From contig CM082584.2 of NCBI GenBank assembly GCA_040954595.2, positions 8,203,919-8,267,918 of the forward strand: 64,000 bases of DNA. Direction: 5' to 3'. A program made the translations under genes and the position numbers. Each line of letters opens with the position of its first letter. The first letter of the stretch is position 1. The notes beneath the pieces are model-generated. The model did not search any database, was not told the origin of the DNA, and saw only the letters and a program-made list of their open reading frames with translations. Source of the stretch: Balanoglossus misakiensis (Eukaryota > Animalia > Hemichordata). Below, one piece after another: positions 25,932-64,000 of the stretch.

Positions 25932-28900
25932 ATGTATGTCCTGTGTTTATGCCTAGCCGTTCTTCAGTCTGTAGTGTTCACAGCAGCTAGAGTTGGTGAG
26001 TATATCAAATGTTGCTGTCATTTATTATTTGAATTAATTTATTTAATATCGTTAGAAATTCGATTGTCTCCAGAAATACACTCAACCTGCTCCTGTTGTC
26101 AGATTGGAACTGTCAATATCTGAGTTTAATGTTCCAATTCAATTCAATTCAGTTCAAGTCAGTTCATTTCATTTCAATATTTCTTCATTCATTCCAAACA
26201 CTTTAGGTCAGCTGTTCCTACTATATCAGTGCCCCTTGAAGGCAAATTATTCATAAATATTCTCACATTTAATACGCTAATGACAGATTATCTCGAAATC
26301 ACTTTATACTGATTTCTTCCAGATATTGTATCAGAAAAGACTGTACCGGTATATGAAGTCGGAGAGACTATTGAGATCAACTGTACGTCGCCTTCTCATT
26401 CAGCACTGTATATAGAATGGTATTTCGACTCGCGACCGGTTCCTGCACATCTGTATGATGTGATCTCGGCCGACCTGTCCCAGCTCACCATTCCGGACTC
26501 CAACTTCAGCCACGCCGGAAACTATTCCTGTGCGCTGCTGGGAGATCTTCTGGAAGAGGTTGCGACCGTTCAAATAGAGGTTGGAGGTTGGTGAAGTTTC
26601 ATGGTTCTGGGTCTTTTCATCTCTTGACCACCCTCCCCATACACCTCCCTTCCCTATACATGTATATTGTGGTGAATGCATTTGGCCGTCACTTCATAAT
26701 TTCATTTTTGCATTTAATTATACCACAGCCAAGCCACACCCAGCGGCCAACTTCAGCTGTCACTCGTTCAATGCGTTCGATATACTGTGCACCTGGGATG
26801 AAGGAGGAGCTACAAACATTCCAACCACGCATAGTTTGAAGTACAAGTCACTTTACTTTGGTGGGGGGTAAGTAACCATAGACACAGTATATAATTATAC
26901 AAATCTGTCAACTTTTCGGGTGGTCGAGTTGTCACATTTTTATGTTGATGCATAAAATGAGGACTTTGAAAAATATTCCAGTAGTTCTGAGTATATTTAT
27001 GAAAATATGCTGTACAGTGACACTTTCTGAACTGTCTATTTCCAGCTGGAAAAACTGCCCCGACGAGACCCGATCCGTGGATTGCCCTGGTATCCATGAC
27101 TACACATACTCCTGTCACATGGATGCTGCCAGCGGCCACCATGAGGGAAACAGACACAACTTTACAGTCATTGCTGAAAACGCCCTGGGGGTCACTCACA
27201 CTTCAATATTCTTCAACCCAGAAGCCGAAGGTATCTATCAGCAGAGATGTTTTTTGCTTGAATTTATTTGCAAATAAAGAATCATACACCAATATCTACT
27301 TGTCTAGTATTCCTCATACATGTATAGTATTCATTGTGTGAATGGTGAATGTCAATATTGTTTATTTTCTATCATTTCAGCTATACCATTTCCTCCCGAA
27401 GATGTTTCAGCCATAGGTGTGGATAATTCATGTATAGAGATCAGTTGGGAGTTCCCCTGCGGATGGGTACACGAGTTTGGTGAATGGTATTATCTGCAGT
27501 ATCAACTGCGATGGAAGTCAGAGTGGGAACCAGATCCATGGCAGCCTGTGAGTGCAATTAGTGCTTCTTATTTATTATTTCACGCCAGAATGTGGTTCAA
27601 GTATCAAATAGAAATGTTGAGAATCATAATTGCGTCATTTGATCATCTTAGTGATCATTCATGACATAGAGCCAAATGATGACGAAGTCCTCTCCATTCA
27701 TCCAATAACAGCTAGAGCCTGTAAAGCAAGACTATGCGAGAAGCCGACGGCAGTGTGGCTTGGAGGGTTACACGGAATATGAGGTCCAGGTGTCTGCTGC
27801 CCTCACGGGCCAGGATTTGTACTGGGGTGACTGGAGCGATGCGATCACTGTGAGAACCCTGGAGCAAGGTAAAGTCAGTGCACGGTATACGTTACAGTGG
27901 TTGTTAGGACAGTTGCCCCCAGACGTATATCACCCACCATGAAGGACTATCGTTGCAGGAATTGTCCCATATATGTGTAAATGGCCAGGGGGTGACTGCC
28001 CTAGAATTATATGCAGTGGACCTGTCGTAATGTCGACCGTGTGGTTTCCTGACACTTCAGTTACGTGTAGTAAAAAAATCCCTTACTATGCAGAACTGTT
28101 CAGGAGCACATTTTTTACATAATATACAATGTGTTAAGCCTGAAAAATGTTTTGGGAGATATATAACATTTGTTTTATTTTATACTCAGCGCCAATCTCT
28201 CGACTGGAAGTCTTCTATGGCAACAGCAAAGACAACTTAGAGGATTCTGCAAAGAGAGATGTAACAATACATTGGAAGGTAAGACTCAGTTATGAGATAA
28301 GGAATGATTTGTTGAGACTGTGAGTCAGTTTCAGAGTATTACATGCATTTTGACGATGACAGTCAAGCTTCCATCAAATCAGAAATCACTACTTGTTATG
28401 TGAACTTGCAAACATAGTCACTTGAAAAAAAGTCGGTGCTTCTTTTGCCTATAGCCACTTGGACCACGGCAGATGAAAGGAGAAGTACTGCGATATGCGC
28501 TGACATTAAACGAAGATGGAAGCAACGATACACGAGAAGTCAACACATCAGCAGATGCCATATCTCATGAATTCCAAGGTACTAATCTTTTAATGATTTT
28601 TTTTCCATATTCATTTGCTTATTACCATACTTTATTTTCTGCTGAGAAAAAATGAAGAAAATTTTTCCTTTCTGTTTAGATAGGGGACTACTCAGATGTA
28701 GTGCATGGTTGTCACCTTAACTAAACTCAGTGTGCCTTCTCATATTAGACATGTTTCATCCTCCATTTCAGCATTAAAGAAATATTCCTCGTATAGTGTG
28801 ACAGTGGTAACATTCAACAGCATCGGCTCATCTCCTCCAACGTCACTGAGGATTTTAGGTCTTTCAAGTGGTGAGTTCATTGTGAATTTTGTCCACTTTT

Positions 28901-31900
28901 TCATTCTGTTAAAGCTTTCCTTACAAGGGAGAATTGAAGACCAAATTTTGTCCGAACCATGATAGTGAACAGGCTAAGACATAAGAAGATTTCTGTTTTC
29001 AATTATTGCAGTGGTCTATGTGACACAGCCACAGTGATCATGCGTAGACCAAATATGGTCCTAGCATGTCACTTTTTACACACATTTTGATGTCATGTTG
29101 TCTTTTACCTCTGTGGGAATAGAGAACGTCAATGCAGAGTTATATAGAACAGGTAAAATTGTTGGCTGGCAGACGAGCTAGAGGAGTATGATTTGAAAGC
29201 AAGTTCGGGACATGGTTTTTGGAGAAAAAAATTCATGATCGGTTTTGTATCATTTATTCTTAGCACCAAGTGAGCCTCGCAGTGTTACTGCTGCAGTCAA
29301 AGACAAGAACAGTATAACGGTGAGCTGGGATCCTCCGTTGTATCCGCGAGGAATCATCCAGGAATACAAGATATACTGGAGAAGGACAGGAGAAGAAGAA
29401 TTGTGAGTGTGTATGCAGGGCTCGTTTTGTTCCTGGAAAACCATTCTTGGAATTTGGATTGTTCCAGGAAGTTTGTAATAGTCCCGGAAACTCTCGGAAA
29501 ATTGATTGACTGCCTGTGGTCCATTGACAAAAATCACAGTTACTTTGAAAGTATGTGTAACAAGTATAGAACATCTAGACAATCACATCTTTGCTTTATT
29601 TCCCTCCAAGAAATTTTGACACGGTGCCCCTGTCGTATCCGAGCCAAGAGTTGAAGTACGATGTGACAGGTTTGGAAGAGTACGTTCAGTACGAATTCCA
29701 CGTTCAGGCATTCACAACTATCGGTGGCGGTGGACTCTCAGAAGTTGCTTATCAGTACACTTTGGAAGGTGGTGAGTGCATTGGCCATTGGTCTCGTGTC
29801 ATTTAAGAAGAAAGAAATTGCATGGAACACGTGTAGTCCTGATGACAAATGCTGATGCCCATAATGAAACTGTACTTTTGGCATACATGTAGTTTGAAAT
29901 CATGTGACATTTTCTCTCTGATTTTCTTGTACAGTACCATCTGGTCCGCCGAGACACATCCAAGTGGAGCCAATTGACGATCCGACCAGACTTCAGCTAA
30001 CTTGGCAGCCACCGTGTTTGGATGAGAGGAAAGGCATTATCCGGGGTTACATTCTTTACTACTGTCAACTGCAGAATCTCTCCAGCTCACTTTCTTGTCT
30101 GGGTAATGATGTCTTAAGTTATTTTTACATAGCATTTTGAAACCAGCAACGTCACAGATCTGTCACAAGGCCTGCAACCCTTGTCACTCAGAATGCCGTA
30201 CAGCATGGTAGTATTATGAAAACTGATGGCCTGGGCCATTTTTGTCTCCTGTATAAGTTAAAAGCCAATTTTAAATAATGGTTAAAAAAAAGGCTGTCCC
30301 AGTCTTCTAAAGAACATACATGTACATGGCCATCCAATGAAAATATACATCATTGGCTAGACCTCAACTTGCGATGGTAACTATGGCCAAATTTGTATAG
30401 CTGACCATGTATGTGTGCCTTTAATGGGCTCTGGATGTCTTCACACAGATTCAACTACTAGGATGCGTAATGTATCTGCCGAGGTGTCACACGAAGTCAT
30501 GGTGGTAGAGCTAGAAGAACTGAAGCCATTCACCGAATATGCTGTGTGGTTGTCGGCCTACACCAGTATAGGAATATCCGGTCCCAACAGTACTGAGATG
30601 TGGAACAGGACATCTGAAGGAAGTGAGTGACTTTGGGATGGTTTGTTGGGCACTATTGGTTGTCATTAAAGGGACAATAACTGTAATTTTTGGGGTGGTT
30701 TTCTTAATTCTGTGTGTCAAGCACAACTTCTTGTTCTACTCCAAAAAGCATTTTTCTTGACAATAGCATATCAGATTATTTGCTGTAGTGTTCAAAATCC
30801 ACTTCTTGCAGTACATGCCCTAATCTAAGTTCACCTTTGACCCGTCTAGCTCCGAGCGCACCCCGGGGAGTGAAGGTCACCAACAGAACAGCCACTGAGA
30901 TCACCCTGGAATGGCAGCCGCCGTCAGAACCGAACGGCATCGTTGAAAATTACGTAGTGAGGTACAACAGTGAATCCATCGTGGCCAACCAGACCAGGGT
31001 CACGTTAATGCAGTTGCTTGGCTACACAACTTACGTCGTCACAGTTCAAGCGTGCACCGGGGCTGTTAGCATTCCCTGTGGAGATGCGTCTGATGAAGTG
31101 CGCCCACAAACGCTGATTGGAGGTAAGGTTTTTGGAAAATTACTAAAAATTTGTAATGTCTGTTTCTCAGCAGATCACTTCCACACTCTTCAGTGTTGTG
31201 CCTGGCTTAAATTTTCTTTATATTTGATGCAATAATACAATGTACATTCTGTTACTCTGCTAAAATGTTAGTTTCACTCATTAATTATCAAAACCGGGCC
31301 TCTTTCTTGGCCGCAGTACCCGGCAAGCCGAGCCCACCAGTGGTGTCCCTGAAGTCGCCGGGAAGCGCCGTGCTGACCGTTGCAGCGCTGTCGACGCCCG
31401 GCGGGCCAGCGGAGCACGTCAAGTACTGGGTCTTCTACAAGAAACCCGGCGACGCCGAGTACATGGAACACACCAGTGTGGCAGGCACCAGGCAGATCAG
31501 CAGCTCCGCCGGCGCGTACACGTACGCAGTTGAAGTGCACATCGATTGCGACGATGTGAAGACTGATGCAGATTACGTGTTCGCTGTGGCGGCCGTCAAC
31601 AGCCGAGGTGATGATTTGCTGGTCGGCCAAATGAGCGATCCCTCTGGCTCTGTTAAGCTGTGCTACCACAAGCCAGGTGAGTTGCTACAGAAAGTTAAAG
31701 GCACAGTAGATGTAACCTTTGATATTATCATTATTTTTGTTCTTTTTTTGTCGTACCACGATGTAATCCGTAGAAACTTTCTACAATTATAGACTTAATT
31801 TATTTATTTTCTATATTTTCCCTTGTTTTAACCCCCAGATATTGCCGTGATAGTGGCTTTAATCATAGTTGGAACCATTTTAGCTATAGCAATCATTTTG

Positions 31901-33788
31901 TGTGGGACATTTAGTTGGAGAAAGTACAAGAAGTCAGAATTTGCTCTACCGGTGCCTGCTGCTAAACTGCCACCTCTGGTGAGAAACAGATTCCACTTGT
32001 TCAGACTCCTCCTGTGTGTGCATATATTTGGGTGTGGCACTGGTTTATTATTTAGCTTGTACAAACCCGCGATTCACAACCTGGTCAGTGGTAATATTAA
32101 GACTTTTATACATATCGCTCAGTAAGTAAAGCCATGAAAGAATTTTTTTTATTTTTGACTAACAGGAGACTTACAATGAGCGAGACCCAGACAGGAAATA
32201 CACAGACGACACCCGCGAAGTGTATGACGTTCTTCAGAATCACCGAGTAGATGCCACACAGCTTAGCAACGGTTATGGGCCTCAGTCCAGGTACCAGCGA
32301 CAGAGTAGTGGAGGATGTAGTGATACCTCGCAGCGATCAGACTCCAGACTCATTCGAGACACCGACCGAGACGCACCGATCGACGAGGACGAAGACGAAG
32401 TGTTTCCGTTACAGTTTCAAGACTACCACAAGTCGAGGAAGCACCCGTTGAGGATAAACATCCCGAAGCATTACGTGAACTCTAACCACCAGGACGCAGG
32501 TTTGCTGGCCATCCACAGTCCCGATTCGGGTTTCATGGCCGGGTCGCCCGGGTATACTGTGGTGCACGACCAGCTGCCCCTCGTTGGGTTTAGCTCCACC
32601 GGCAGTAGTCAGGATGACAGCGTGTCCGAACACTTGCAGATGTCGGACTTCAGCAACGGCCGTAACGCCCCTCCCCACGCGCAACAGGGCAACCGTTTGA
32701 CGAGCATCGATTCGGGATTCGGATTCAACTGTCTGAGCCCCACCGATTCGTCGGCACCGATATCGATCTCCGGATTTCTGCCGTCCGAGACTACCAACGT
32801 CAATTACTCCCAGCTCAGCCCGGACGGCAAACTGGCGCCGGTCAGTTTGGACGAGTCCGGTGGCTCTCACGTTGCCGTGGATATAGACTCGGGACACTGC
32901 CTGGAGAGCGTCGACTACCAGCAGCTGAGCCCGGAGGGGAAACTGGCCCCGGTCACCATGCTCTGTCCGGAGGACGACACGCGGTCGGCAGACCAGATAG
33001 GAGGCGGCTTGGAGTACAGCAGGATAGCTGCTGATGGCACCTTGTCCCCAGTCAGAAAGTCGGAGCCGAATGTGCACTTCAAAGGCGACATGATTGTGCC
33101 GCCGGCGGACGTCACAGTCATGAGCGTCCACGGGGCAACTTCTGGACAGGATGGGGACATGTGCTACGTCTCAGAAGAGAACATGAAGAACCCAACGTCT
33201 AGCCCTGCAAAAGATAGAGTACCAGGTGGTGAGATTTCACTGGACAGCAGCAAAGATACCTCAGGCTCTGCAAGACATTCAGGAGAGCACGGAGGAAAGA
33301 TAAAATTAGATGCACCACCTGCATCGGAATACGTCCCAATTGAGGATCCAATGCCTACAAAAGACAGGCCGTTCATGCGCGACATTAACCAGATGGACAA
33401 CCCTTCCCATGGCAACAGGGTGCATATACACGCCCTCTTGGACAATCCAAACTATGTGCCAAGCACCGGTTACGCCCCTGGCACTGACAATAATCACAGG
33501 ACTCCCGTAAATTCGGAAAAACCTAGCAGTAGTGGCCCGGTGTATGTGAACATTGATTCTGCACCATCTGACACAAACACTGACACACAGGACAGTGGTG
33601 ACAGACCACACTATGTGAATGACAGTGTCACAAAAGGCAGTCCAGCTGATGCTGCTGGTGATGTGAAATCAAAACCTCGGACAGATTCAACTCCACATGA
33701 GTACATCATTCAGGACAGTGTTGCCAATCCTAACCCAACTAATAAACCTGTCGCAGATGGGCAGTATGTTCAACATGCAGATGTGTGA
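25932..33788 (+). CDS. Gene B: complete gp130/Domeless-like class I cytokine receptor (signal-Ig-CHR-5xFN3-TM-long Tyr-rich tail)
   Basis: Exons: 25932-25995 (signal), 26323-26586 (Ig), 26729-26867 and 27046-27230 (CHR D1, FSCHSFNAFDILCTWD), 27381-27547 and 27712-27868 (D2, WGDWS at 27823-27837). FN3 exons are 28190-28278, 28455-28578, 28772-28870, 29264-29402, 29611-29771, 29935-30102, 30449-30622, 30850-31122 and 31317-31676. Then TM plus Box1-like LPVP at 31839-31978 and the cytoplasmic exon 32166-33788. All junctions are phase compatible. Confidence 0.92.
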
Positions 33789-36225: not shown

Positions 36226-36237
36226 GGCCCCGCCCCC
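36226..36237. promoter_or_regulatory. GC box upstream of gene C exon 1
   Basis: ggccccgcccc about 100 bp upstream of the signal-peptide ATG. Confidence 0.45.
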
Positions 36238-36335
36238 TTTCAGATCACATGCACACACATCGTACGGCTGATGTCATATACTCAATGGCGAGAAGGGGAC
36301 CGAGCGGCTGACACGGCCACCATGGTGAAGTCGTC

Positions 36336-39300
36336 ATGGCACCAGAGCGTCGTTTGTCGAAGTTGGTCGTCACTTTGACGGTGTTGACCTGTGCGAGCCT
36401 TCGCTCCGTCCAAGGTAAGAAGGTCGACCCTGCGGGGACGCAGCTGCTGGTCTCAAATTCGAACGCAAATCTTTCAACAAGTTGTTCAGTATCCGTAACG
36501 TGATATAGGCCTCGACTCGTTTAATACGCTTATCAGTTTACCGTGCACCGTGTATTGTAGATCGAACTTTGCAAAATATGTGGACTTTGGTAAAGTTGAA
36601 TTGATAATCAAACAGGATCTCTGCCAACGCATCTATGCATGCTCCAATGTGGTAATCCGCTACTTGGCCTCATGATCATTACACGCAGGGATGCAGGTGT
36701 CCATTTCAGGCTTCGGTGCGGATTTATCCTGAAGTGAACTTGCGATAATACAAGACGTCTTGAAAGCAGTGTGGTGTCATTTTTTCAAAATTCCGCTAGT
36801 TTTTGTGACTTTGAGAGACTCTTTTGTATATATTTGATCCTCATTTCTGTCATAATAATGCACTATTTAGTCGGATTTACTCCATTTTCGGTTCATCATC
36901 GTCCCACTTCTAAGAAGCTAATGCACGTCACCATAACGGCCTGTACCAGGAACTCGCATCTCACAAATACGGGGAAGTGCTTTACACTTTATCTAGGTCA
37001 TCATTCCTCGCTTTACTGCACAACACGCGTTGTTAATATTATCAAACTAAAAAAATGTCGTGTTGTACGTGTACGATGTTTTTTTTTTGCGAAGAATTTG
37101 AATGGATGCTCAAGGAAACTAGGCCTGACAGTGCGAACCTGACACGCCACGCGTTGGCGTAAAAACGAAAGTAGTCCCGGTAAAGCGAAAATTCATGTGC
37201 GTCAGCGTGATATGGTGACGCATCACATCGATTGAAAGCGACCAAGCCGTTAAATTTTCACATTATTTAATAATTTGGGGTTATTTTTTTGTTTTTATGG
37301 GTTATTTATGTTTCTGCACACTTAAACATGCGCGATGACAGGTTGTTAATATTCAACTGTCCCTTTACATGGGGAAACAGGAGAATACACATCTGCAATA
37401 TAATTTTCAGTACTGCCCGAAAATTAAGTGTTTGACGTTTTCATATGTCCTTGTGCACACAATTTCAGTGGGTAGAACGACATGAATGCTCTGGAATTTC
37501 ATGCACAAACCATTTTACAGAGTGATTTTCTATTGAATGGATATTCATTTGCCCAAGAGACACTTGTCTTAATTGTGAAAGGGAAAGCGGATCATGCATG
37601 CCAATTAAAGACAGGGAAAGATGATTCTATTACGGCCAAGGACAACTTCCCACTTTTTGTGCGTAAATCTGTGAAAGGAAAAATAAATAGTGATAAATAC
37701 TGTCGCAGCAAATGATCCTTAACTTCTGCTTGTAGTGAACTGTGATGAATTATAGGTCATTATTCTTTTATGTTTTCTGTTCATTTGACACTGGAGCTGT
37801 TATTAACGATGTTGCTGTGGCTGAATTATAAGAATTATACATCCTCATAATGAACTCTTTTGTTTTATGTGATGATATATTCACGGTAAAATTACGTGAT
37901 ATAATTTACATATATGTGAGAGGCTGTTGTCAATTAAAACGTGTGTAAGATTTTCTGTGGTGGTGGACATGAAATGTTCAAATCCTATTCAAATTCAACC
38001 ACTGTTACCATAGAAAATTCAAATCTAAATCTAGCAATCGCAGATTGTAAGCTCGGACTCTGTGTGTGTGAAAATTTCAAGGTGTCAGTTGCAGAATTTC
38101 TGCCCCTGCACCAATAACCCACAATTCATCGCATTTCATTATTGTGCACCTTAATTTACTTCTTTCGTTCTGTGTTGTCAAGGTGTTCTATTCAATTCGT
38201 GGTCTTTCAGTTTGATGGGTTCCTGGAAGACTGACTTCAGCGTCTATTGAATTCCGGCCAGTAGTGCCCTGTGGGTTTTTCCCACTGCGCTCATTCATTT
38301 CTTTGTGTGAAAGTTGATGTATTTGTTGTTTGTTAGAGCAGGACAATGTGACCAGGCACTTTTGTGAAAGTGACCCCAAATAAAAAATCCCAAGGACAAC
38401 TTCTGTTTAGGATAATGTTTCGTGAAGATTGGCACTGCTGGGCAAATAGAGAGAGCTTCTCTTTTCAGATTCCGAAACAAAGTGACGTTATGGAAAAATG
38501 TGACCCCCTTGCAATAGTGGAAGTGCTTAAATTCGTGGTATAAGTCGGTTTATATTGCAACTCGTAACAATGCGTTACGCTTGATATCACCACACTTTTT
38601 GTCATCAGTTTGCAAAACTCACTTGGCCTGCATCCTCATGAATTTTACAAACGGATGACGTACTAAGTGTTGTCATATCAAGCATAACGCATCGTTACTC
38701 CTGCAATAACCTATACTTAATACATTGTTTGACTTCTATAAGTTATAACTTGTATTGTATAACTTTGGTTATCTTTTCAATATTTGTATTCATTTGTGAT
38801 AAAAACAGCTTCCTGAGTTCTCTATGGCCTGTACATGTGTAATAAACACCCAATGCTTATGTTCACAAATGGCAACAGTGCCAAACACAGTGGCTATTAG
38901 TGATAAGATAAACAGTGGGCATTTATTTAATCGAGCCCCGGGGCATTGAACGCAAAACTTCAAATAGAACACTGACAGACTCATCTGGGTCAGTAACAAA
39001 GATGTTTTTGTACCCTGCACAATCTTTATATTTGCATGATACGTACATGTGTATGTCTGTCACAAATATACATGTTGTCACAAGTCAGTGGTAATGGATG
39101 AGTTCCCTTTAGACAACACTTCTCTTAAATTAGCTGTTGACAGGATAGCCTGTTTGCATGGGTACGAGGCTAGAGATGTAGACTGAATGGTATAATAATT
39201 CTGTCACCAATTGCATTTTTTAAAGTTTTTATGTTATTCTGCTCACTGAAACACTTAATTCACAAGCAGGTTAGACTTAGAAGTAGAACAGAGCTGCTGT

Positions 39301-42300
39301 GTTGGATGCTAATTAGCTAACATGAGTCCATAAATTAGAATAATTTTAAGGGATATATGACAGGTACAGTGTGTAAAATGATATAATACTGATAGCCACG
39401 ACCCAAATAATGTCAAATGTCAGAGGAGAGAGCGGCGTTGTCAATAAAATTCCTACCAACAGAACTCTCCTGTGGCCAGTGGCTGTAAGTCTGTACTGTC
39501 AACTTGTATATACAGACTGCCATGCAGTGTTATTGTCAGGATCATGTAGTGACCGTTAAAAAATGAAGCTGAGAGAAATTTATGGTTCCATGCAATAAAA
39601 CCATTTGTGAATGTGAATGTGGTGGCCAGTGATCTATATTTGTATGTGTAACAACTATAAATGTGTCAACTTGCTCCCCTAGGTTCTTGACTTATACTTA
39701 TAGAAGTATTTCTGCATATTTCTCATATCGGTATAAAATCAACAGGTGAAATTATTGCGGTGGAGATAAGTGTGTGTACATGTACGCCGACCATATTGAC
39801 TCTTGTCTTATTAATACAATGGGATCGGGTACAAGATTTACTGCTGTACTGTACTAGAGAAGTTGTGCAGTAATGACATGACGCCACTCTAAAAGCATTT
39901 CTTAAGCAAACACACAAGTTGTAAATAACTCAAAACCACAGAAGGGTCACATGGTTGTGTATGTTAACTGTTTGTGGAATTTATTCTATCCTATGTGAAG
40001 TTTGACGACTGTACATGTACATTACATTTGTACCGCTGGGTCTCACTGTTACAGTGGCTGCCACAGAGAGATTTTAATTACTTTAATATTTACACAAACT
40101 TTTAATATGTATGCCTTTGAGGTGTGTTTGGTCTTTTGTGTACTTAGTCAAACACAGGTTAATCAGTAATAAAATGCTTCCTCACACTTCAGTGCATTTG
40201 ATCGGTTGCCCACGCTGTTTTGTTCATATATACTCTATCCATTGTGCAGGTCCCAGAGCTGTTAGCACTGTAGTCTTAATTATAATTGAGTTGTAAAGTA
40301 ATGCAGTAGCAAAGTCAACTCAAAGGCCTCTGGATTACCGATAAGACGTGGAATGTGAGACTGTCCACATCCACACTGAGAGGGGCTTCTTTGACAGGCA
40401 CTCATTGCCTTGCTCTGCCAGCATGCAAAGATTTCATACTACCGGGTATAAAACAAAGTACCTGAGGTATAAAAGTATAAAGCCTATTTACTCATAACAC
40501 ACAAGTATAACTTTTATATCTGAGTAAATGGCTTGGAATTACCTTACAAAAGAGCTTTTGATAGATTAAATGACACTTGAAAGTTGGTAATTTGTTTATA
40601 ACGTTGTCAATCATGATGAATATACATGTAATTTGTATATTGCTGATTGAGAGCCTCCGCAAGGCTGGACTCAGAACCACCATTGAATGTTTTACAGTAT
40701 TTTATTTTCATGATTTGTAGGGGTCCAACTTTATTAAAAGGTAGGAACGAATTTTGAAAAGGTCCTCCCACACACTCTAATGCTGGAGAAAAAGGAGTTT
40801 GTCCACTCAATATTTGCTTGGCAACATTAACATATTACCGGTATACATCGTGAAGTGTGCAGGAAATCGTGACTTAAAATGGTCACCACTGTCACTTTTA
40901 TACATCCATCAGTCAACCTTTAAACCCTGTGGGTGGTTTTATGAGCTTGTTTCTGAATTGAAACGCTGCAAAATAAATAATGAAAGTTAATAGAAAATGA
41001 CCCAAATAGCTGGCATGTTGCCAGTCTGTATATAGTGAGTTTTTCCTTATTGTTGTCACAGATCTTTTAATTTACGCCGAGTATGAACACCCACGTGAAA
41101 ATAGGATTCCTGAATGGTTGCTGATACCAGTTGGGTTTCAGTTCATGTCTGTGCCTGAAATTGAAGTAAGGGAACACTTCCCTCTTGTAAAAAATTGTTA
41201 AAAGGACATGTCTGGTGTGCAAACCACAGCTTGTCATTTTCTCCTTTTAAGAAGAGAAAAAGTTTAAAATGTTGACTTCTAAGGTGCATACTACCTTAAA
41301 CCATATACAGAGAACTTCTATCTTTACTTAAAACCATGAGATGCCAGTTTTGTGAAAACATGGCTGACTTTTTACCCACAATGCATTTTGATCTGCACTT
41401 ACCAGTATGTCTGAAAACAATCATTGTGATTGTTTCAGTTGGTCTGTGCGAATTCCAATAACACCCAAATGATATCATCATTACATACAGTGCTACACCA
41501 GACATCTAGTGTCTCATGGTTATATTTAGGAATGGGTGTCATTGAAGTTTATTGATTTATCTGTCTTTTATAAGGTTAATGTTGTTTGGATACAGCTTGT
41601 TGTCAGGTAGTCCAAAGGTCACAGTGTTGTGTCCGCCTGGTATTTGATGGAATGATTGGACATGGGTGATTAGCTGGTGTTTTTTGACTGAATATCGATT
41701 TGCTGTAAAAACATTTATCTCAATTGACATAACTCAATTTTTTGTTTTGCTCAACTGTTTCACCATACTGGGTTTAAGCTTGATCACCCGACTGTCAAAT
41801 GATCAGCTGGTTGCTCATTCTTCTCTACAATCACACACGGGAAGATAATAATTAATTAGACAAGTTAGATAGACCAGCCCTGCATGGGAAGACATAAGCT
41901 CAGATTGAATATAAATTAAGATGTGGATTCATTCTGTTAAGCTTGTTTCGAACTCTCTTTGTCCTGATAAAAGATGTAAACTTGTTGCAAGTTTGTGTCC
42001 CACCCCATGCTATCCGTTTGGAATGAATATGTCAGGAGTGTTTTTGAGGGGAGCCTCAAGGGGGAGCCCCGGTGCATATTCCCATTAAAGACATGACGGC
42101 AACTGTTGTCATAGCAATAGTTGTAGTGAACAGTAGCCCAGCAGTCAGGCGTGAATATGTGCCTTATAAGCTTTACTGTCCATGTTTACATTTCTACTTT
42201 TTTAAATATCCTGGATTATAAGTGGTAATCAACAGGTGGTCATTTGATCTGACCAAAATATACAGTGAATCCAGGTACATGTATGGGGTCCAGCAGCATG

Positions 42301-45300
42301 GTGGCACACATTTCAAAGTTTAACCCTTTCACAACCATGGTTCAGTCCAAACCCATTGTTTTCTATGGTAAGGTTGGACCTCTAAAGAGGGAACTGGGGG
42401 TGAAAGGGTTAAAACAGACAGAATGTATGACTATTATAAATACATCATTCTGATAGGAATATGTTTGAACTGAAAGTGTCATAAATAAAACTTAACAGTT
42501 TGACAATGATCAGATACTGGTATATTGCTCAGCAGTGTATCATGCATGTGCATGGATATGAAACCATGATCATAGCACCTTGATTGAGTGTGTTTGACAC
42601 ATTAATATCTTATACATTACGTCTGCTATGAATAAAGTTTTTTTATAGGTCAGGAGAGGTTGTATATTACATCAAGTCTGTTTCACTCCTAATTTATTGA
42701 CTCAAACTCTGTATACGGTACTGTTACACATATGTAACATGGTATAAATGTTTTCCTTGGATGGAAAAATTGCAGAACTTCAAACAAGAGCCATGTTGGT
42801 TTTCTGTGGAGTTTTTTATCAGCAGGTTTTCTCACACAGGAAGAGATATGGCTGTTGATTGGCATCTTGAGTTTCAGTACGTGCACATCCATGGCAGAGG
42901 TGAATGTTCGGTGCCAACAACTGGTAGTTTAATGTGATCAAAGTACAAGTGTGCAGCCATTCACAGTGTAATATTGAGTGGAGTGGTAAAGGTTTGTTTT
43001 TATCTCTGAGGACATAATACCAAGGCAACTAAACATGTAGGGCAATCCAGCGCAGGTGTTGAAAACCACAGCCATCAAATCACCCTGGCCCATAAAAAAG
43101 TGTCTGAAATAGTCTGGTGAAGTGACTTGGAGACAAATAGTGTGTTTGTGAGGACTCAAGCACTTAACTGTCACTTAATATCAGAAAACCTAAGTTTGAA
43201 AGTAAAAAGTTTAACAAGAGCCCCACTCTACTATACCACAGGTGAAAAGGTTAATTATCCTAGCCAAGTCTGGTTATCAGAATCCATAATCTTCTTCATC
43301 CTGTATACTGTAAGTTGCTGCGTGACCTGAGTACAGTACAATGGTCAACTAGCTTTATCGCTTCTGTCTGTTGATACAGTGTGCCAACGGGATATAAATG
43401 TTTGGTGTATTTGAAGGGTAGGGCTTTGGGGCTTAAGCTTTGTAGTGGAGGAAAGCCACCCCAATAAAAAGAGAAAACAAATTGTGATTTAGGAGTGGTG
43501 GGGCGGCATTTTTGTTGCTTGATTCACTCCAGGAAGTTACTTAATTTGAAGTTAATGCAGAATTGCATGCATGCTTCCCAGTTTGTTGGACTCGCACCAC
43601 ATCTGACCAACTCCCATAGAAGCTCCCGTTTAACCTCCCATTGTGGCCTGACCAATCAGATTGCACGTTACTTTGATCTACACTGAAGGATATTATACCT
43701 ATCGTTCTCTATGGCACCTTCTGATTGGTTTACTGGCCCTGTACAGCCAGAGATCTCACAATTAGCAGAAAATCATCTGTTAAAAAAATTGGAATTGGTG
43801 ATCGAAAACTGTGATTATATTATTGATATTTGTTTCTCCCTGGTCAATCTTTAAAGGGACATTAGCTGTAAATTTGTTTTTGTTTTTCCGGTATCTCTTT
43901 TTTGTGTATCAAGTCCAATTTCTTGCTCTACCCCTGAGTAGCTTGTAATATGTGTATAGGTACACAAAACAAAAGATGTAGCAGAAAGTTACAGCTAATG
44001 GAGCTTTAAAGTACATGTACCTAAACCAGGACAGAACATTTGACTTCTGATTGACCGTTGTCATGATGTAATCACACTTAATTACCGGTAATCGGGAACC
44101 TGACCTGGTGAATGTCTGAACATGTTTCGAACACTTCAGAGGCCATCATTTCCAATAAAACGGTGGAATGTTAAACCTTAAACAATTTTCATGTGATCCT
44201 CTTGCAAACTGGCAACAGCGATTTGTGGCCATTTGTTACAGTATTACTGTCACACGGTCAAGCACTGGTGTGATGTGATGTACAGAATCTCTGTAAGGAT
44301 AGACTTGTACATACATGTACAGTGTGGCCTGGTTAAACTCCTGCACACAGTGCATGCAGGTCTATAATCCCATGATGATAATAATGGGACGACGTGAGTG
44401 CTTGAAATTGCGCAATATATATCCACCTATCATTCCTGACATTAATGTACCCCGGATGATATCTTATATAAATTTTAGATAACTTATCAATAGAGGAAGC
44501 CTGTACCTTTCTCCAATGGACAGGTACATCAAGAAAAAGGGAAGAGATCAAGGATTACTTTACATGTATGTCATAGTTATCCATGTGTGATCTCAATGTT
44601 TTAATGTATATATAATTACCGGTACCTCATGTGTAATGATTTTGATATCACTCCACATACCTAATGGTATAGTAATGATAAAAACCGTAAAACTGCCATG
44701 ATATGCAAAGTACTGTGTGGGTGGCACAGCGTGGGGGAGGGGGTGGCGTGGGTGGGAAGGTGATGTCATAAATGATAAGGACATTTTGTATAGTGTGGAA
44801 TGGCGTGGTGGTGACACTGGCAGAAAGAAATATGGACATACAGTGATACTTATAGTTGTAATATATTGCTATATTATTGTGGCCTCATACCAGAGAGATT
44901 AGACAACACACTTGGCATCGATAGCCATGCTGTTTCTTTATTGCTTTACTGCACATGCTCACCTGTTCAGCCTCATGCATTATACACAACAACTTTTTAC
45001 ATAGCAGTTAATACCAATACATATCACTAGTCTGTTAAGGACATTTCAGGAACACAAACTTGCATCCTTAGGAGAGAGCCTTTTTTTCTACCATCTAGAT
45101 ACCAATGGCAGCACATACTTGTCCAGATTTTCACTGATTCCAGAACATAAAAGCATTCCACAGCCATGAAAATCACTGTGACAAAATTTAATTGCCTGCA
45201 ATAATTTCATTCTAACTTGGTTAGTACAAGGACATGATGTAATAAATGTTCAAGGTTTTAAATAGGATTTTATTGGTTCTCTCTTCTGCACAGCTGATTC

Positions 45301-48300
45301 TAACCCTCCAACCAATGTGCGAAGTGACTGTCCAAACCTGAACTGCACTGTATACTGGGACCCGCCAGAAGGCACGACTGAAAACGACACTTTGTACTAC
45401 ACCACAGAACATCAAGAGTAAGTAATTCCTAATTAGTACATATACGTCATGTTTTGATTGACATTTAGAATGTTGATAGGGAACTTTTGCCAACAGGATC
45501 ATGAACTTCTTTGTGGATAAAAGAGGAAATTGTTTATACACACACCGCTGGTGGCTAATTCAATAATTGAATGGTTTATACATTAATATGAAATTAATGC
45601 ATGCCTAATATAATGCAAACACTGATTTCAAAAAGATCATAGCATATTTGCATTCGGTTTGTATGCAATATAGTAGTAACATGCATGACAATGATCATTG
45701 ACATGTACAAGTAACTTTATTGCATTGCTCTGTAACCCATATTTGATAAATCAGAAGCAGGGATTACCATACTTGGACATTAAACAATAAATTTAACACA
45801 TTCTGTGAATGTTACTTTAAGTTGACCAGTAGCATTTAATTCCTAATCAGTAATTTAATGTTCAAACATAAAATTCCTAATCAGTAATTTTAACATGTTT
45901 GATGTTAGTCCCAATACTGGCAATTTACATGTAGATCAATAACAATTAACAAACAAAAAAAGTGAGAAAGATATGTCTTTGATAGACAGTGCATGTACTT
46001 GCGTACACGGCATAGGCATATTGTAGCATGGAAATTTGCATGGTGTCATTTTCTTACAGCTGTATCGAATTATATGATAATGGATGGATAACAAAGTGTA
46101 CTAACAGCACAGAAAGAGAATGCAACCTTGGTAGTGATTTGACTTTCCCAGAAAAACCATGGTGTGTGTTGGTAGGGACACTAACAGAAGATGGAACTGC
46201 ACAGAATCTGTTGAATCCATCACTTGTGATAGATTCCTATCATACGGGTAAGCTGGAAGTTATACTCCTTAATGCTAGCTATATTTTTCTGGCTTTCAGA
46301 ATGGCAGAGTTGGTGTATGATCCTAATAACTGGATGCACAAACAAGAATGTACAAACACAACTCTCACGTTGTGCAATTTTGGGGCAGACTTCGATCCAA
46401 TTATTTCTGATTGGCGCACAAAAGTCTCGTCACTCAAAGAGGGTGATCCAGAATACAGTACACCTAAGACAGTTGGTGTTATACCTTATTATGATGGTAA
46501 GCTCAGAAGTGGCAATTATTAAATATTGCATCTAGTTGAAAAAAAGTGAAAATTAACTTAAGTACTACTGTACCAAATTTGTTGGAACTATCGACAGATA
46601 GTAAATCATTTTTGTGACAATGTTCTGCTCATTTGCATATATGACTTTTGCTTTTAGTTTTCATTTCCAACATTGCTGCAGCTAATTTGATGAAACTTGC
46701 TTTAGTTATTTATCTGACAGTCATCTGACATCTACAAGTTCCATTTGAATTAATATCTTATTTGCATATTAAATGAATTTGTGCAAGCAGCTGTACAACA
46801 CCAGACTTCCTATACCGAACCTGAAAAATTAGCAGTTATATTTGCGCTAGCAATTCATGTTGTGTACCAAAATATTTATTGTGTTATGCTATTGCTAGTT
46901 AACCATTAATATAGTGTTGGAACTATTTTTTTTTTAATGCAGCAACACTTGGTGAAGCATATATTGTAAATGTAACTACCACCAGCCGTTCAATTTACCT
47001 GAGGTGGGACTCTCCTTACACTCCATATTATGACTACAATACTGACAGACAGAAGCAAATGGAAGAATATTATAGTATCCAGTATAATTTGACATACTGG
47101 GATGTTTCTGATCCTACAGAATGTGTAAGTACTTCCAGGGCTTGCTTGTTTTTTGTTTTTTTGACAAAAAACATCAATGATGATATTCTCACCAAGCTAC
47201 CAAGATCCCAGTTGACTCACTAAAATGTAATGCTGCTTTGTGCAACCTGCATAATTTCATTCAAAATTAAAAAAAAAAATTATAATGTGGGCAGTGATTT
47301 GTATTCATGAACTTGTGATAAAGAAATTAGAATGTATGGGGATTAATTCATAGACAATAATTTTCAATGAAAGTTTTTGAAATTTGACACAGATGACAGT
47401 CGAGACAAGTACTGTAGAATTTACAACTCTTAGTGGAGACAAGATAATTCCATGGAGTACTTACACCATTGTTGTCCAGGGAAGACTGCCTACTATTGCA
47501 GGCTATGGAGAACAGGTTGACGTGACTGTAACCACAGATGAAGAAGGTATTGTATACAATTTGCTTTTACAAATTGTGTATACATGTACCAGTGAAGTGT
47601 GTAATTTGTGACTTATTTTGATTGAAACCACAACCTTACCCTGTCTTGCCGTGACGTCTCCTTGCAGTTAATGTGACGTCATGTGTAAACAACAGTTGCA
47701 TCACCATTTCATGTTTTAGAGTGAGGAGTTTATCAAATTCTGTCAATGTGATTTTTTTTATCCAGCTCCTGGAAAAGGTCTCACACTGACGGAAGATGGG
47801 CAGTCACATGACTGTGACATTTCACCTGATGTCAGAGATGTGTATATCTCCTGGCAGGTGAGTAGAGCAACTCTCAGGCCAGCATCCATAAAATTCATGA
47901 CTGCCAAGAGTTAGATGGATCAGGATTTTCTCAAACCTGTGCATCATTGATAAATTACCACTTACATGTAATGTTTATGCACTATCCCAATAGGCCATTG
48001 AACAGGAGTACTGTTATGGAGAATTAACCAAATATCAAGTACGGTACAGATGCCAAGAAAATGCGACCACAATTGAAACAAATGTAAACACCACTTCCGT
48101 GATCCTGTCAGATATATCAAGATGGTGTGCCTACGATGTAGATGTTTCCGTGTGTAATTCGGCAGGGTGTACCGGAAGTGAAAATCCACTTACAATTGAT
48201 AGCATCAAAATTGGTATATATGTTTACATGTTTTGTTCGTAAACTTTACAAATGTATTCCCCTGTAACTGATATTACTTTGATTTGAGTTATAAGTTAAC

Positions 48301-51116
48301 TTTTGTATAACAATCGTTTACTTTACAGCCAGAGACCCACCAGTAAATGTCACAGCGTACGACACCTCATACACCTCATTCAATGTGACCTGGCTTCCAC
48401 CTGACAACGATGAGTGCGTCCACAGTTACAATGTTCGGTACACAAGTAACATCCACGAAGGGGAAACTGTCTCCTACGGTCTTCATGCCCACATAAGAGA
48501 TGTACCATCTGATACAGAATACACGGTCACTGTCTCTGCCAACATCTATGATTACTATGATAGCACAGACGAGAGTGAACCACGGTCAACAACTGTGAGA
48601 CTTGTTGGTAGGTTAAGACTCTGTCCTTCAAAGTCAGCCACTTATGACCTTGAATGACGGAATAATATGAAGTTATTACAATAGTACCTCAAAGTATACG
48701 GTACTAATGTCCGAGTGCATTCTTTGTGGAATTTTTGTAAAATCATTATTATACATCTTTCATCTCTGTTAGTTTTTTTTAAATCCAAATATCTTGTGTA
48801 CCACAATCAACTTATTTCCAATCATTTCCACAGATTGGACAACGCAAGTAGGTCTGATAGTGATCATGGTAGTCCTTGGTGTAATCGTGATGGGGCTGGT
48901 CATTTTGTATGCTTGCTATAGGAAAAAAGAGTTTGTCTATAAGAACTGCTTTGGAGCCGTTAAGAAAGACTCTTTCGACTCGTACATGGTGAGAGAACTT
49001 TTTGACAGTTTGCAACAAATTAAGATGTTTATATGTTTATGATACTCATTTTATAACCCATTGTCATTTCCAGAGGGGGGGGGAACATATTTGATGAAAA
49101 AATAATGTCATTCAAGTTTTGCATGACTGACAAGGCAGTATCTGTAGTACATGTATTTTAAATGGATAGTGTGACGTCCATGTCTGACCTCATGAGTTAA
49201 TATTAACGGACTAAAGGGACCACATTTTGTTTCCAAATTTTGAGGTGATCATTGAAATTGTAAATAAAGTATGTATAAATCACACTAAAATAAACTCCAA
49301 CCATATTCTATAAATTAACACTAACAGTACATGTCCTCATAGTGTACTGTGTATTGTTAGTTTGCAGGTTTCTCAATGGGTTTGTATATGACATTTTATG
49401 TTGCAGGTCGGAGTCTTAGATGACAGACCTAGTGTTCCAACTCATGAAGCCTTCGAATATGATCGACTGTACGCGCCCACAAATGGGATTACTCTTGGTG
49501 TAAATCTTGACACCTCCTCTCCAACTGAGACTGGGATTGCTTCACAAGTTTCTCCACAATCTTCTGATACCGGAATAAACAGTTCTCCAGGGATGGTACT
49601 AAACCTCAGCTTGTCAGATATCCTCTTGCCTTGTAATAGCGATGATAGTTCAGGCGTGGGTGGAAATGTCGAGCCAATGGAAGAGTATCTGCGGGTGGCC
49701 GCAAGCGACAGTCAAGAACCGAGCAAGGACGGCTCACACGGAGTCGTCAGCTATGTCAGAGTCGGGGCTGGGAATTCAAGTTCAAGTGAGGGTTCCCAGA
49801 GTGGCTACCACTTGCAGAAGCCGGTTACTCCTGAAGGCCAACGGGTTGTGCAGTCTGTGGAGGACGGCGAAACTCAAGGAGTTCATCTGGTGGTGGAGAC
49901 TGCAGGTGACTGGGTGAATGACAGCACGTTGCAGAGTGATGAAGAGGACATCGGTGCCAAACTTGCTAAGATTGGTATCGTACTGGATGTGGACAACGAC
50001 GGCAACGGGAATCCCAGTCTGGAAGAGAAAGCCGACGTGAATTCTTGCGGAATACAGGTGGATTTCAGCGACGGTCTTGAAGATGCAGGTGAGAGGAGCA
50101 CCCACACAGGGGGAGAAATTGCGGATGATTTCGGTCAGGGGAGAGATATTGAGTCACCAGCAAAGCTGGATGTTCAGTTTTTACTTGATGGCAGTTACTG
50201 CGGTGATATAGTGGAGTGCGACAACCAATTATTTGAATCGCATGAATTGCCAGAATTGAGCAGCGGAAGCAGCTCAGGTAGCAAGTCGGCATCGAGTTGT
50301 GGAACCAACATGTCTGGCTACACACCCTCATTAGAGCCAGTGGCAGCGCAGATCGAGGAACACGAACCAACCACCGCAGAGTTTCCAGAAGACAATCCAC
50401 AAGATGAGCCGGATGCAAACCTTGCCGACATCCTCGGTATTCCATTCGGAGGAGGAGATTTCGGAGGGTCCCAGAGTGAAGTCGATTTCAGCGACGGGGA
50501 GGGACAAGACGATGATGACACGCAAGCAGCTGTTGCCGCCAAATCTTCCAACTATGTTGCACCTCCGTCTGTCGCCGAGGAGTCGCGACCCGTCAACAGA
50601 CAAGACTGCAGTTCAGGGGACCAAGCACATGGAGACTACGAAGCTTCAGTTCCACTTCCTGCAAGTGGCGATTATAGTCTGGCACCGGCCACAAGCGACA
50701 GACAGGATCGTTCACCAACTAACTACGTCAGTTCGGGCTACGTTCCTCCGTCAAATTCTCGTGATTTGAAAAGCGAGAAACAAGGAAACTTCCTGAGGCA
50801 GGAGAGCAGTACGAGTGATTATGCAACAGACGACGACATTTGTAGAAGTAGACATGACACTGCTGCAACCAAGTCCGACGAGTCTCCTGCAGAGGAGTGT
50901 GCATCAGATGCCTCGAGCGACAGCGCTGTGGGTAGTTCCTCCGACTCCAATCTAGACATCGCAAACCATCCTGATGGTTTTACAGAAGCCGAAAATTCTC
51001 ATTACTACAAGTCTAACCTGAACAATAACAACATTGACTTGGCAAACACAACAAGGACACCCACAAGTGATTTTTGTGAAACATTTTGCAGCAATGACCA
51101 GACAAACGTCCCCTGA
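36336..51116 (+). CDS. Gene C: class II-like (IL-10R/interferon receptor/tissue factor-type) cytokine receptor with two extra FN3 domains, TM and long acidic Tyr-containing tail
   Basis: Exons: 36336-36414 (signal MAPERRLSKLVVTLTVLTCASLRSVQ), 45294-45417 (PPTNVRSDCPNLNCTVYWDPP..YYT), then either 46060-46247 or 46300-46496 (W..C-x7-C-N-L/F), 46943-47124 (TLG..P.TP..MEEYYSIQYNLTYW) and 47393-47546. FN3 exons are 47766-47857 plus 47994-48213, and 48329-48607. Then TM 48834-48988 and tail 49407-51116. There is no WSxWS, and phases across D1-D2 run 1-2-1-0-1. The receptor call is solid; class II assignment rests on motif recognition. Confidence 0.82.
42320..42412. mobile_element. piggyBac-like MITE, best preserved copy
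   Basis: ttaaccctttcac ... gtgaaagggttaa perfect inverted ends including TTAA. Confidence 0.75.
43851..44009. mobile_element. Non-autonomous DNA transposon, Kolobok-like
   Basis: ttaaagggacattagctgtaa ... ttacagctaatggagctttaa imperfect TIR with TTAA flanks. A similar end remnant lies at about 5519-5543. Confidence 0.6.
46060..46247 (+). CDS. Gene C alternative exon 3a (second half of D1; candidate mutually exclusive exon)
   Basis: Acceptor ttcttacag, donor G|gtaagc, phase 2 to 1. Encodes CIELYDNGWITKCTNSTERECNLGSDLTFPEKPWCVLVGTLTEDG..VIDSYHT. Confidence 0.7.
46300..46496 (+). CDS. Gene C alternative exon 3b (second half of D1; candidate mutually exclusive exon)
   Basis: Acceptor ggctttcag, donor G|gtaagc, phase 2 to 1. 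Encodes MAELVYDPNNWMHKQECTNTTLTLCNFGADFDPIISDWRTKVSSLKEG..VIPYYD. Confidence 0.75.
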
Positions 51117-52615: not shown

Positions 52616-53434
52616 TTATCCAAAAATGGTCTTTGTCAAATCACGAAGCCTGCATGTGTCCTCCCGCTTTGGGCTTTTACAATAATACACCAATGATACA
52701 AAGAGTGACAATGCTGCTCCCGACGAGAGATAAAACCGCAAAGACTTGAACCACGAAGGGTAGCCGGTCAGTTGGATGTCGATGACGGCCGCTCCGGACA
52801 ACCCAGCTATCAGGCACGTCAAACCAACTCCCTGATCAAGAAGCAGGCCCAGCCACGCCACCAGGGACGGCGTCACACTGTAGGTCAAATTCAACCAGTC
52901 GGGCTTTGCACTCGCGCCGTTCAGAGTGAGCCCCCAGCGGACTCCGCCGAGAAACGACAGGATGGTAGCGCCGTACGCCATCTGAGCAAACAGCAGGTCG
53001 GCGTCGCAAGAGTTCGTGGCCGCGCAGTACAGCGCGGCCGACGCAAACGGGATCAGACCCGCGAATCCAAGGACTAAAGCCGGCGCCGGTGCCTGGGACA
53101 GGTATCTGTACTTGTATGCAGTTGCGATGGTGACATTTCTGTCGTCTGCCACTGCCGTGTACCCGGCCAAGTTTCTGTGAAAGTTTAACTGTCTCCTCCC
53201 AACATGCTGTGTCTGCATAACTCCACAGGGACCAACTCCTTGATACTTCAAACGCTGGAGAAGTTTGGTGGCGATGTCGCCCTCTATTGCACGATTGCGT
53301 CCAGGTTCTGCTCTCTGAATGCCCACCATATACATGTACCTCCTTGTGAAGTTGGAGCATGAACAGAATTGCAGATACAGTTGATTTCTCTGTCTACTGA
53401 ACAGATAGCACCCAATTCTACCTGAGATCTGCAT
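52616..53434 (-). CDS. TMEM69: Transmembrane protein 69-like (DUF3429)
   Basis: ORF carries PAPALVLGFAGLIPF, AQMAYGATILSFLGGVRWG, SVTPSLVAW and YPSWFKSLRFYLS, all characteristic of TMEM69. The ATG sits directly after an acceptor (tctttcag|ATG at 53434). An upstream 5' UTR exon ends at the donor at 53816. Confidence 0.92.
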   Translation of the reverse strand: MQISGRIGCYLFSRQRNQLYLQFCSCSNFTRRYMYMVGIQRAEPGRNRAIEGDIATKLLQRLKYQGVGPCGVMQTQHVGRRQLNFHRNLAGYTAVADDRNVTIATAYKYRYLSQAPAPALVLGFAGLIPFASAALYCAATNSCDADLLFAQMAYGATILSFLGGVRWGLTLNGASAKPDWLNLTYSVTPSLVAWLGLLLDQGVGLTCLIAGLSGAAVIDIQLTGYPSWFKSLRFYLSSGAALSLFVSLVYYCKSPKREDTCRLRDLTKTIFG

Positions 53435-63984: not shown

Positions 63985-64000
63985 GTAAATACAACGGAGG

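Follow-up and report, generated by a model that had tools for sequence, protein, structure and literature searches.

The stretch of Balanoglossus misakiensis DNA analyzed here, 64,000 nt of contig CM082584.2 (assembly GCA_040954595.2, positions 8,203,919 to 8,267,918 of the forward strand; hereafter the window), contains a gene, designated gene C, that encodes a putative cytokine receptor. A preliminary description made from the sequence had interpreted it as a hybrid in which a class II (interferon/IL-10 receptor-type) binding module is carried on a tall, gp130-type stalk. The gene model at window positions 36336-51116 (+) comprises 10 exons with an open frame and canonical AG/GT sites and yields a single-pass membrane protein of 1,063 amino acids (aa). 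An alternative exon at 46060-46247 had been overlooked. The domain order is signal peptide (E1), D1 (E2 and E3), D2 (E4 and E5), D3 (E6 and E7), D4 (E8), transmembrane (TM) helix (E9) and tail (E10), with features as follows.

36336..36414 (+): E1, start codon and signal peptide, phase 1; the orthologs likewise start with a hydrophobic leader.
45294..45417 (+): E2, first half of D1, phase 1 to 2; 25 of 41 residues identical to isoform X1 of Ptychodera flava (XP_070563355.1).
46060..46247 (+): E3A, one of two interchangeable exons for the second half of D1, with four cysteines, phase 2 to 1; identified by splice sites, selection and P. flava isoform X2 (XP_070563356.1).
46248..46299 (+): 52-nt intron separating E3A and E3B; position 46272 is its sole yUnAy candidate for a branch point.
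46300..46496 (+): E3B, the other interchangeable exon for this half of D1, with two cysteines (C-x7-C), phase 2 to 1; identified by Tissue_fac and IL20RA matches.
46943..47124 (+): E4, first half of D2, phase 1 to 0; weak Interfer-bind match.
47393..47546 (+): E5, second half of D2, phase 0 to 1, without WSxWS and without cysteine.
47766..47857 (+): E6, first part of D3, phase 1 to 0; resembles the first stalk exon of genes A and B.
47994..48213 (+): E7, remainder of D3, phase 0 to 1; fn3 25.5 bits, FN3_DSCAM 25.3 bits.
48329..48607 (+): E8, D4, a generic FN3 domain in one exon, phase 1 to 1; fn3 35.1 bits, 67-70% identity to P. flava.
48834..48988 (+): E9, TM helix followed by a juxtamembrane segment that lacks Box1 prolines, phase 1 to 0; identified by hydropathy and a motif test.
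49407..51116 (+): E10, 569-aa acidic, serine-rich tail and stop codon.

Within 34500-45290, E1 is the sole hydrophobic ATG..GT candidate of phase 1. The intron phases around D1-D2 are 1-2-1-0-1, a pattern reported for class II receptor genes in a preprint (10.64898/2026.05.30.728932). This pattern is not diagnostic of class II because genes A and B, two class I receptor genes in the same window, have it too.

The stalk exons matched three P. flava proteins at 67-70% identity (three of the four matches among 401 candidates, the fourth being a weak moth phosphatase), and a cluster look-up yielded a fourth P. flava protein. Over the ectodomain and TM helix, gene C shares 48-53% identity with these orthologs, which are easily overlooked because of their RefSeq names, either “uncharacterized” or “serine-rich adhesin for platelets-like.” The stalk unit is seemingly duplicated (D3-D4-D3-D4) in a second P. 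flava gene, represented by the models P0122 (XP_070562401.1) and P0121 (XP_070564028.1). P0122 runs from D4 into a new first exon of D3 and has no TM helix, and P0121 starts in D4 and continues through the same D3 exon and D4 to the TM helix. Both models may be faulty versions of a single gene, and stalk length may vary by tandem duplication.

Inspection of D1-D2 revealed every motif named in the preliminary description at the place given for it: PPTNV at aa 31, WDPP at aa 48, the C-x7-C pair at aa 85-93, P.YD.TLG spanning the E3B/E4 junction at aa 130, and PYTP at aa 158. Neither WSxWS nor CX9-10CXW, by which class I receptors are defined (PMC1963337), was found in aa 1-445 of either isoform; both motifs are present in genes A and B. 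The Tissue_fac scores of the gene C pieces were 15.9 and 24.7 bits, below the curated cut-off of 27; the former is the best Pfam match of E3B, a half-domain, and lies at the expected profile positions. The sole Pfam match of E4, also a half-domain, was Interfer-bind (16.6 bits, cut-off 21), again at the expected positions, and E2 gave a weak match to Il13Ra_Ig. The P. flava orthologs scored 50.3, 37.2 and 28.6 bits against Tissue_fac, so that three of the four proteins pass the cut-off of 27; the remaining one is an incomplete model that lacks D1.

An ectodomain profile, A6, built from two P. flava ortholog ectodomains and seven exons of gene C, was matched to the PDB. The profile matched both domains of vertebrate class II chains, namely IL20RA (4doh; 3.4e-11, positions 3-168), IL22RA2 (3g9v; 1e-10, positions 3-191) and IL10RB (5t5w; 7.7e-8, positions 2-217), together with IFNAR1 (3se3), IL22RA1, IL20RB and IFNGR2. 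A W...C-x7-C pattern is common to gene C, IL20RA and IFNAR1 in these alignments. Single exons gave weaker matches: E2 to IL13RA1 (E 0.13) and IL20RA (E 0.74), E3B with IL20RA as its best match, and E4 to IL22RA2 as the second of three (E 0.93). As controls, the CHR exons of genes A and B matched LIFR_D4 and EpoR_lig-bind but no class II model, and the D1 and D2 profiles reached only shuffle level on all 16 domains of genes A and B. Scores confined to generic FN3, class I CHR or phosphatase models were looked for and were not what D1-D2 returned. By sequence, and with orthologs that pass Tissue_fac and a profile that selects class II chains, D1-D2 of gene C is of the class II (interferon/IL-10 receptor) type, as had been claimed.

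In vertebrate class II receptors, a pair of cysteines lies close to the D2 end. This pair is absent from gene C, in which C194 is the only cysteine of D2 and E5 has none. The D2 domain of P. flava holds a C-x7-C pair in mid-domain; gene C has a tryptophan at the first of these positions, which leaves C194 unpaired.

The stalk consists of two FN3 domains, D3 and D4, and the comparison of D3 involves the two receptor genes that lie upstream of gene C.

50..5822 (-): gene A, class I Dome/gp130-like receptor with Ig, CHR (WSEWS) and at least five FN3 domains, running off the window edge; span given from the Ig exon to the edge.
26323..33788 (+): gene B, class I Dome/gp130-like receptor with Ig, CHR (WGDWS), five FN3 domains, a TM helix with PxP and a long tail; span given from the Ig exon.

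Genes A and B are divergently oriented, and their stalks of at least five FN3 domains are longer than that of gp130. The preliminary description had noted that E6 mirrors the first stalk exon of both genes, and the motifs concerned, APGKGL at aa 246 and RDVYISWQ at aa 269, are indeed present. Pairwise comparison of D3 with the first stalk domains of A and B gave Z values of 9.0 and 10.2, versus at most 4.7 for their remaining domains. A hidden Markov model of D3 scored 25.9 and 24.4 bits on the same two domains, the next among 16 domains reaching 6.9 bits and the best of 1,600 shuffles 7.0 bits. The match was reciprocal: the reverse profile, of the A/B first stalk domain, selected the four D3 sequences at 23.5-38.1 bits versus 7.5. 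A phase-1 start and a phase-0 intron after the B-strand tryptophan are likewise common to D3 and the first stalk domains of A and B, and genes A and C have the same T.EE/AP junction at the end of D2. In the PDB, IL12RB2 matched positions 157-359 of profile A6 (E 2.5e-7), colinear across the D2/D3 junction. These observations indicate that D3 probably descends from the first stalk domain of Dome/gp130-type class I receptors.

D3-D4 matched the Pfam fn3 and Dscam-type models and neither Tissue_fac nor Interfer-bind. The four domains of IFNAR1 are described in the literature as a likely duplication of the D1-D2 pair; such a tandem arrangement was ruled out for gene C because the class II matches end by position 217 and D3-D4 is fn3 only. 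On comparison of domain profiles, D4 was a generic FN3 domain that could be assigned to no stalk group, and the protein-cluster look-up with E8 returned generic FN3 clusters. The best PDB match of E7 was L1CAM, and the E6-type three-exon profile, E8 and E9 returned nothing specific from the PDB. AlphaFold2 models built from shallow alignments had mean pLDDT values of 42.0 and 42.9; Foldseek on these low-confidence models gave TM-scores of ∼0.2, and VIA, also on a low-confidence model, recovered an FN3 fold for D3 with gp130, LIFR/OSMR-complex chains, L1CAM, receptor protein tyrosine phosphatases (RPTPs) and sDscam tied at Z 11-13.

The cytoplasmic tail of ∼590 aa contains 18 tyrosines (those after residue 470), 15 of them in E10, and several align with tyrosines of P. 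flava. Its length resembles that described for the long chains IFNAR2 and CRFB1-2. The first 25 aa of E10 are conserved relative to P. flava at 13 of 25 positions, versus 142 of 513 for the rest. The tail of gene C includes a V-x-Y-x-x-V motif at Y610 and one YxxQ motif, at aa 628; the tail of X1 has ten YxxQ motifs. In the P. flava proteins P0125/P0123, a 12-residue tandem repeat, mostly with YxxQ, occupies residues ∼900-1030, and this array is absent from gene C. Gene B carries three YxxQ motifs and a PxP Box1, and its tail (32166-33788 +) also has (L/I/V)xYxx(L/I/V) tyrosine motifs at aa ∼1094, 1131 and 1164.

Two exons are available for the second half of D1, E3A (188 nt, four cysteines) and E3B (197 nt, two cysteines), both of phase 2 to 1. 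They are free of stops and 36% identical, and the score of their alignment was reached by none of 2,000 shuffles. Inclusion of E3A alone or E3B alone leaves the frame open; inclusion of both creates a stop at aa 205 and of neither a stop at aa 72. The intron between them is far shorter than the 38 other introns of genes A-C, the shortest of which measures 115 nt, and its only yUnAy, the predicted branch point, lies 25 nt from the donor. A human atlas (PMC5740500) gives a donor-to-branch-point distance below 50 nt as the steric limit for mutually exclusive exons, and the properties it ascribes to such exons (tandem position, similar length, same phases, homology, a distance below 50 nt and a frameshift) are those of E3A and E3B. 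The strength of the E3A acceptor was exceeded by none of the 459 AG sites of intron 1, and that of its donor was equalled by 2 of the 625 GT sites. Over 61 codons, the proportions of synonymous (pS) and nonsynonymous (pN) differences were 0.75 and 0.48, consistent with purifying selection, and of 20,000 neutral simulations 2 retained an open frame with W, C and C and none reached 36% identity; this result is favored because the codon alignment was derived from the protein alignment.

The same arrangement is found in P. flava, where the RefSeq annotation models X1 and X2 are identical over the first 64 and the last 1,049 aa and differ only in the exon for the second half of D1. X1 is of the B type, with 31 of 66 residues identical to E3B, and X2 is of the A type. 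Cross-species scores were 100-165 within a type and 53-66 between types, and a five-sequence tree separated the A and B types with ultrafast bootstrap support (UFboot) of 98. At the level of the exons themselves and of ortholog annotation, E3A and E3B thus appear to be mutually exclusive, each transcript using one or the other. Relative to the B form, the A form has two further conserved cysteines, which probably form an additional disulfide.

No third copy of this exon, and no duplicate of any other exon, was present in the window. A word search with the E3A-E3B stretch found 0 matches among 258 candidates, though orthologs exist, and a cluster look-up gave no usable match. In a metagenome scan, 1 of 113 stretches matched, on a bacterial contig with open reading frames (ORFs) resembling sigma factors by translation, and was rejected as chance.

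Taken together, we consider it somewhat better than an even prospect that gene C encodes a receptor whose class II head binds a helical cytokine, with a binding surface set by exon choice and signaling through tail tyrosines. The product would likely bind a secreted helical cytokine at the D1-D2 junction; for the CHR module, PMC11339341 states that variable loops contact the cytokine where the two FN3 domains meet. One of the two alternative exons would be used per transcript, a choice enforced by the 25-nt donor-to-branch-point distance and the frameshift. Because the swapped exon covers half of D1 together with the presumed cytokine-binding junction, the exchange may alter the loops at that junction, and the isoforms would differ in ligand or affinity. 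What is exchanged amounts to half of the presumed ligand-binding domain, the switch of ligand itself being inferred, and the IIIb/IIIc exons of FGFR are a functional analogue. D3 would lift the binding module off the membrane. In a receptor pair, gene C would be the long chain that bears the tyrosines, with a JAK bound to a noncanonical, conserved juxtamembrane block or supplied by the partner chain and with STAT proteins or SH2 regulators docking on the tail; the evidence leaves this long-chain role, with its noncanonical or partner-supplied JAK, evenly balanced.

The observations that weigh against this reading concern first the stalk. Its best PDB match is the FN3 of chelicerate sDscam (8.9e-16 versus 2.5e-7 for IL12RB2), with RPTPs and contactin at 1e-5 to 1e-6, just behind IL12RB2, and gp130 is missing from the best 60 of the 61 PDB matches of profile A6. 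The proposal of a gp130-type tall stalk is accordingly upheld in part, by the relation of D3 to genes A and B and the colinear IL12RB2 match, but not by the higher rank of sDscam, the absence of gp130 from those 60 matches or the generic D4. The count of domains also departs from it, with two FN3 compared with five in gene B and the three of gp130 given in PMC11339341. The hybrid may therefore be a later hemichordate chimera, in which a two-domain class II gene gained its stalk by exon shuffling from a class I neighbor or a Dscam-like gene. This alternative, which concerns origin only, is a lesser possibility but the strongest of those considered: sDscam ranks above every cytokine receptor on D3-D4, the phase-1 domain borders allow shuffling, potential donor genes are adjacent, D4 is generic, and the D3-D4 unit is apparently duplicated in the second P. 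flava gene. It is opposed by the IL12RB2 match, which crosses the D2/D3 junction, by the T.EE/AP junction at the end of D2 as in gene A, and, if the domains are homologous, by the amphioxus class II receptors with three to four FN3 domains reported in a preprint, which suggest an older stalk.

The tail provides the second group of such observations. PxxLxF, PxxL and PxP were absent from the first 60 cytoplasmic residues of all three tails inspected (gene C, X1 and P0121), and the first proline of the family tails lies at +31 or +32, compared with the PxP of gene B at +11. In class II receptors, the proline and leucine of the Box1 PxxLxF motif for JAK1 are completely conserved according to PMC5394478. 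Moreover, the single YxxQ of gene C is not conserved in X1. Since no Box1 motif is present, JAK binding by gene C, like its ligand, is inferred, and gene C is not filed as an interferon receptor or a canonical JAK1-binding chain because Box1 was tested and not found; nor is it filed as a gp130-family member. The lack of Box1 in three of three tails also suits an inhibitory or decoy chain, whose ectodomain would capture the cytokine or pair with the Dome-like neighbors and, having no JAK, damp the signal. Drosophila eye transformer/latran, which adjoins domeless, is a precedent, and gene C similarly adjoins two class I receptors with which it has a stalk-domain type in common and carries V-x-Y-x-x-V at Y610. 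Such a role is nevertheless unlikely in view of the long tail with its 18 tyrosines, several of them aligned with P. flava, the ten YxxQ motifs of X1 and the conserved juxtamembrane block; TYK2, moreover, is reported to contact IFNAR1 mainly via Box2.

Further points of this kind bear on the head and its ligand. Interfer-bind was listed for D2 in 2 of 10 alignment rows (best E 4.3e-5) and was unlisted for the full-length orthologs, and this model also marks clusters of unrelated FN3 proteins. The A isoform alone matched no class II chain among its 12 PDB matches. No interferon outside chordates was found in a screen by genome and structure that reported lancelet and lamprey interferons and none in the other invertebrates covered (10.64898/2026.05.30.728932); its main text is silent on hemichordates. 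A class II fold with a noncytokine ligand, acting in clotting, adhesion or pathogen binding, would agree with the lack of a known hemichordate interferon and with the absence of Box1. Tissue factor, with its class II fold, binds a protease. Exon-switched ectodomains occur in recognition and adhesion receptors as well, which counts in favor of this alternative. It is nonetheless improbable, given that the closest solved relatives are IL-10 family and interferon receptors, with tissue factor not among the best 60 of the 61 PDB matches, and given the long tyrosine-rich tail and the cytokine receptor neighborhood. It is more improbable still that E3A is a dead duplicate, or that E3A and E3B are parts of a single long exon that includes the stretch between them: this 52-nt stretch keeps the frame and contains no stop, so that read-through would give an open 1,144 aa, and E3A alone has no Pfam match, but both types are kept as RefSeq isoforms in P. 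flava, E3A bears the selection signature and the strong acceptor and donor described above, and read-through would presumably leave an unpaired half-domain.

We therefore retain the reading of gene C as a class II-headed receptor for a helical cytokine, although an antiviral, interferon-like role for it is doubtful. Two GAS-like TTCN3GAA sites lie at 36021 and 36067, ∼300 nt 5′ of the start codon; they are not clearly enriched because 36 such sites occur across the 64-kb window. No interferon-stimulated response element (ISRE) or NF-kB motif was matched in the 1 kb upstream of gene C. No ligand candidate was found in the window, in which 50 unassigned ORFs gave 0 Pfam matches.

The preliminary description had stated that canonical interferons are known from vertebrates. 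Read as a restriction to vertebrates, this is outdated: lancelet interferons and amphioxus class II receptors with three to four FN3 domains are already known from 2026 preprints, which place the origin of interferon signaling in basal chordates (10.64898/2026.08.17.745176 and 10.64898/2026.05.30.728932). The first of these describes BjCRFB1 with four FN3 domains and BjCRFB2 with three, together with antiviral assays. Both are, like gene C, class II receptors of invertebrate deuterostomes that have a signal peptide, a single TM helix and at least three FN3 domains, BjCRFB1 having the same FN3 count. They differ from gene C in being chordate, and the available text neither classes their extra FN3 domains nor mentions alternative exons or hemichordates. 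According to PMC10210618, hemichordates possess TLR3, RLRs and IRFs but no clear type I interferon, the missing interferon step being an open question. Further sources compared were PMC12284397, PMC3296744, PMC5127012, PMC8218723, PMC5332411 and PMC11853465. In a literature search that covered openly accessible papers and the main texts of preprints, no hemichordate class II receptor, no class I-type stalk in a class II receptor and no mutually exclusive exons in a class II cytokine receptor were found.

Gene C resembles vertebrate class II receptors in a Tissue_fac D1 with W...C-x7-C, the lack of WSxWS and the 1-2-1-0-1 introns, and differs from them in two extra, non-class II FN3 domains before the TM helix, the lack of PxxLxF and the alternative exons for the second half of D1. 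With tall class I receptors (gp130, IL12RB2, LIFR, Domeless and genes A and B) it has in common the likeness of D3 to the first stalk domain of A and B and the IL12RB2 match over D2-D4. Unlike them, it has no Ig domain, CX9-10CXW, WSxWS or PxP Box1, and two stalk domains rather than three or five. If class II receptors arose from tall class I ancestors, a class II head, a class I-like stalk and Dome-like neighbors would be expected. An evolutionary intermediate between the two classes is plausible. The class II-type head outside chordates suggests that this receptor type is older than chordates and provides a bait in the search for a hemichordate ligand. A conserved exon swap in the binding domain would offer a means of widening cytokine specificity without gene duplication. 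Only tentatively can all of this be joined into one proposal, that gene C is a living class I/II intermediate whose class II module originated on a tall, Dome-type scaffold earlier than the chordate-ambulacrarian split, that it has stayed next to its class I sister genes and that it binds a hemichordate interferon/IL-10-like ligand, with two specificities by exon swap and no canonical Box1.

Elsewhere in the window, a signal-peptide exon for gene A was sought and not found. Between genes A and B, 13016-14846 (-) holds cysteine-rich open stretches with the look of decayed coding sequence, possibly a transposon, and with 0 Pfam matches. Toward the window end, 56417-60852 (+) and 62165-64000 (+) contain a multi-exon gene with Gly/acidic low-complexity exons; by translation, the exons at the very end read like a short-chain dehydrogenase, the ORFs scanned there having no Pfam match. 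The nearest gene on the 3′ side of gene C is the following.

52616-53434 (-): TMEM69-like gene, tail to tail with gene C; PF11911 is present in its homologs.

Its best match was a protein of Glandiceps talaboti at 243 bits, the next match scoring 172 bits.

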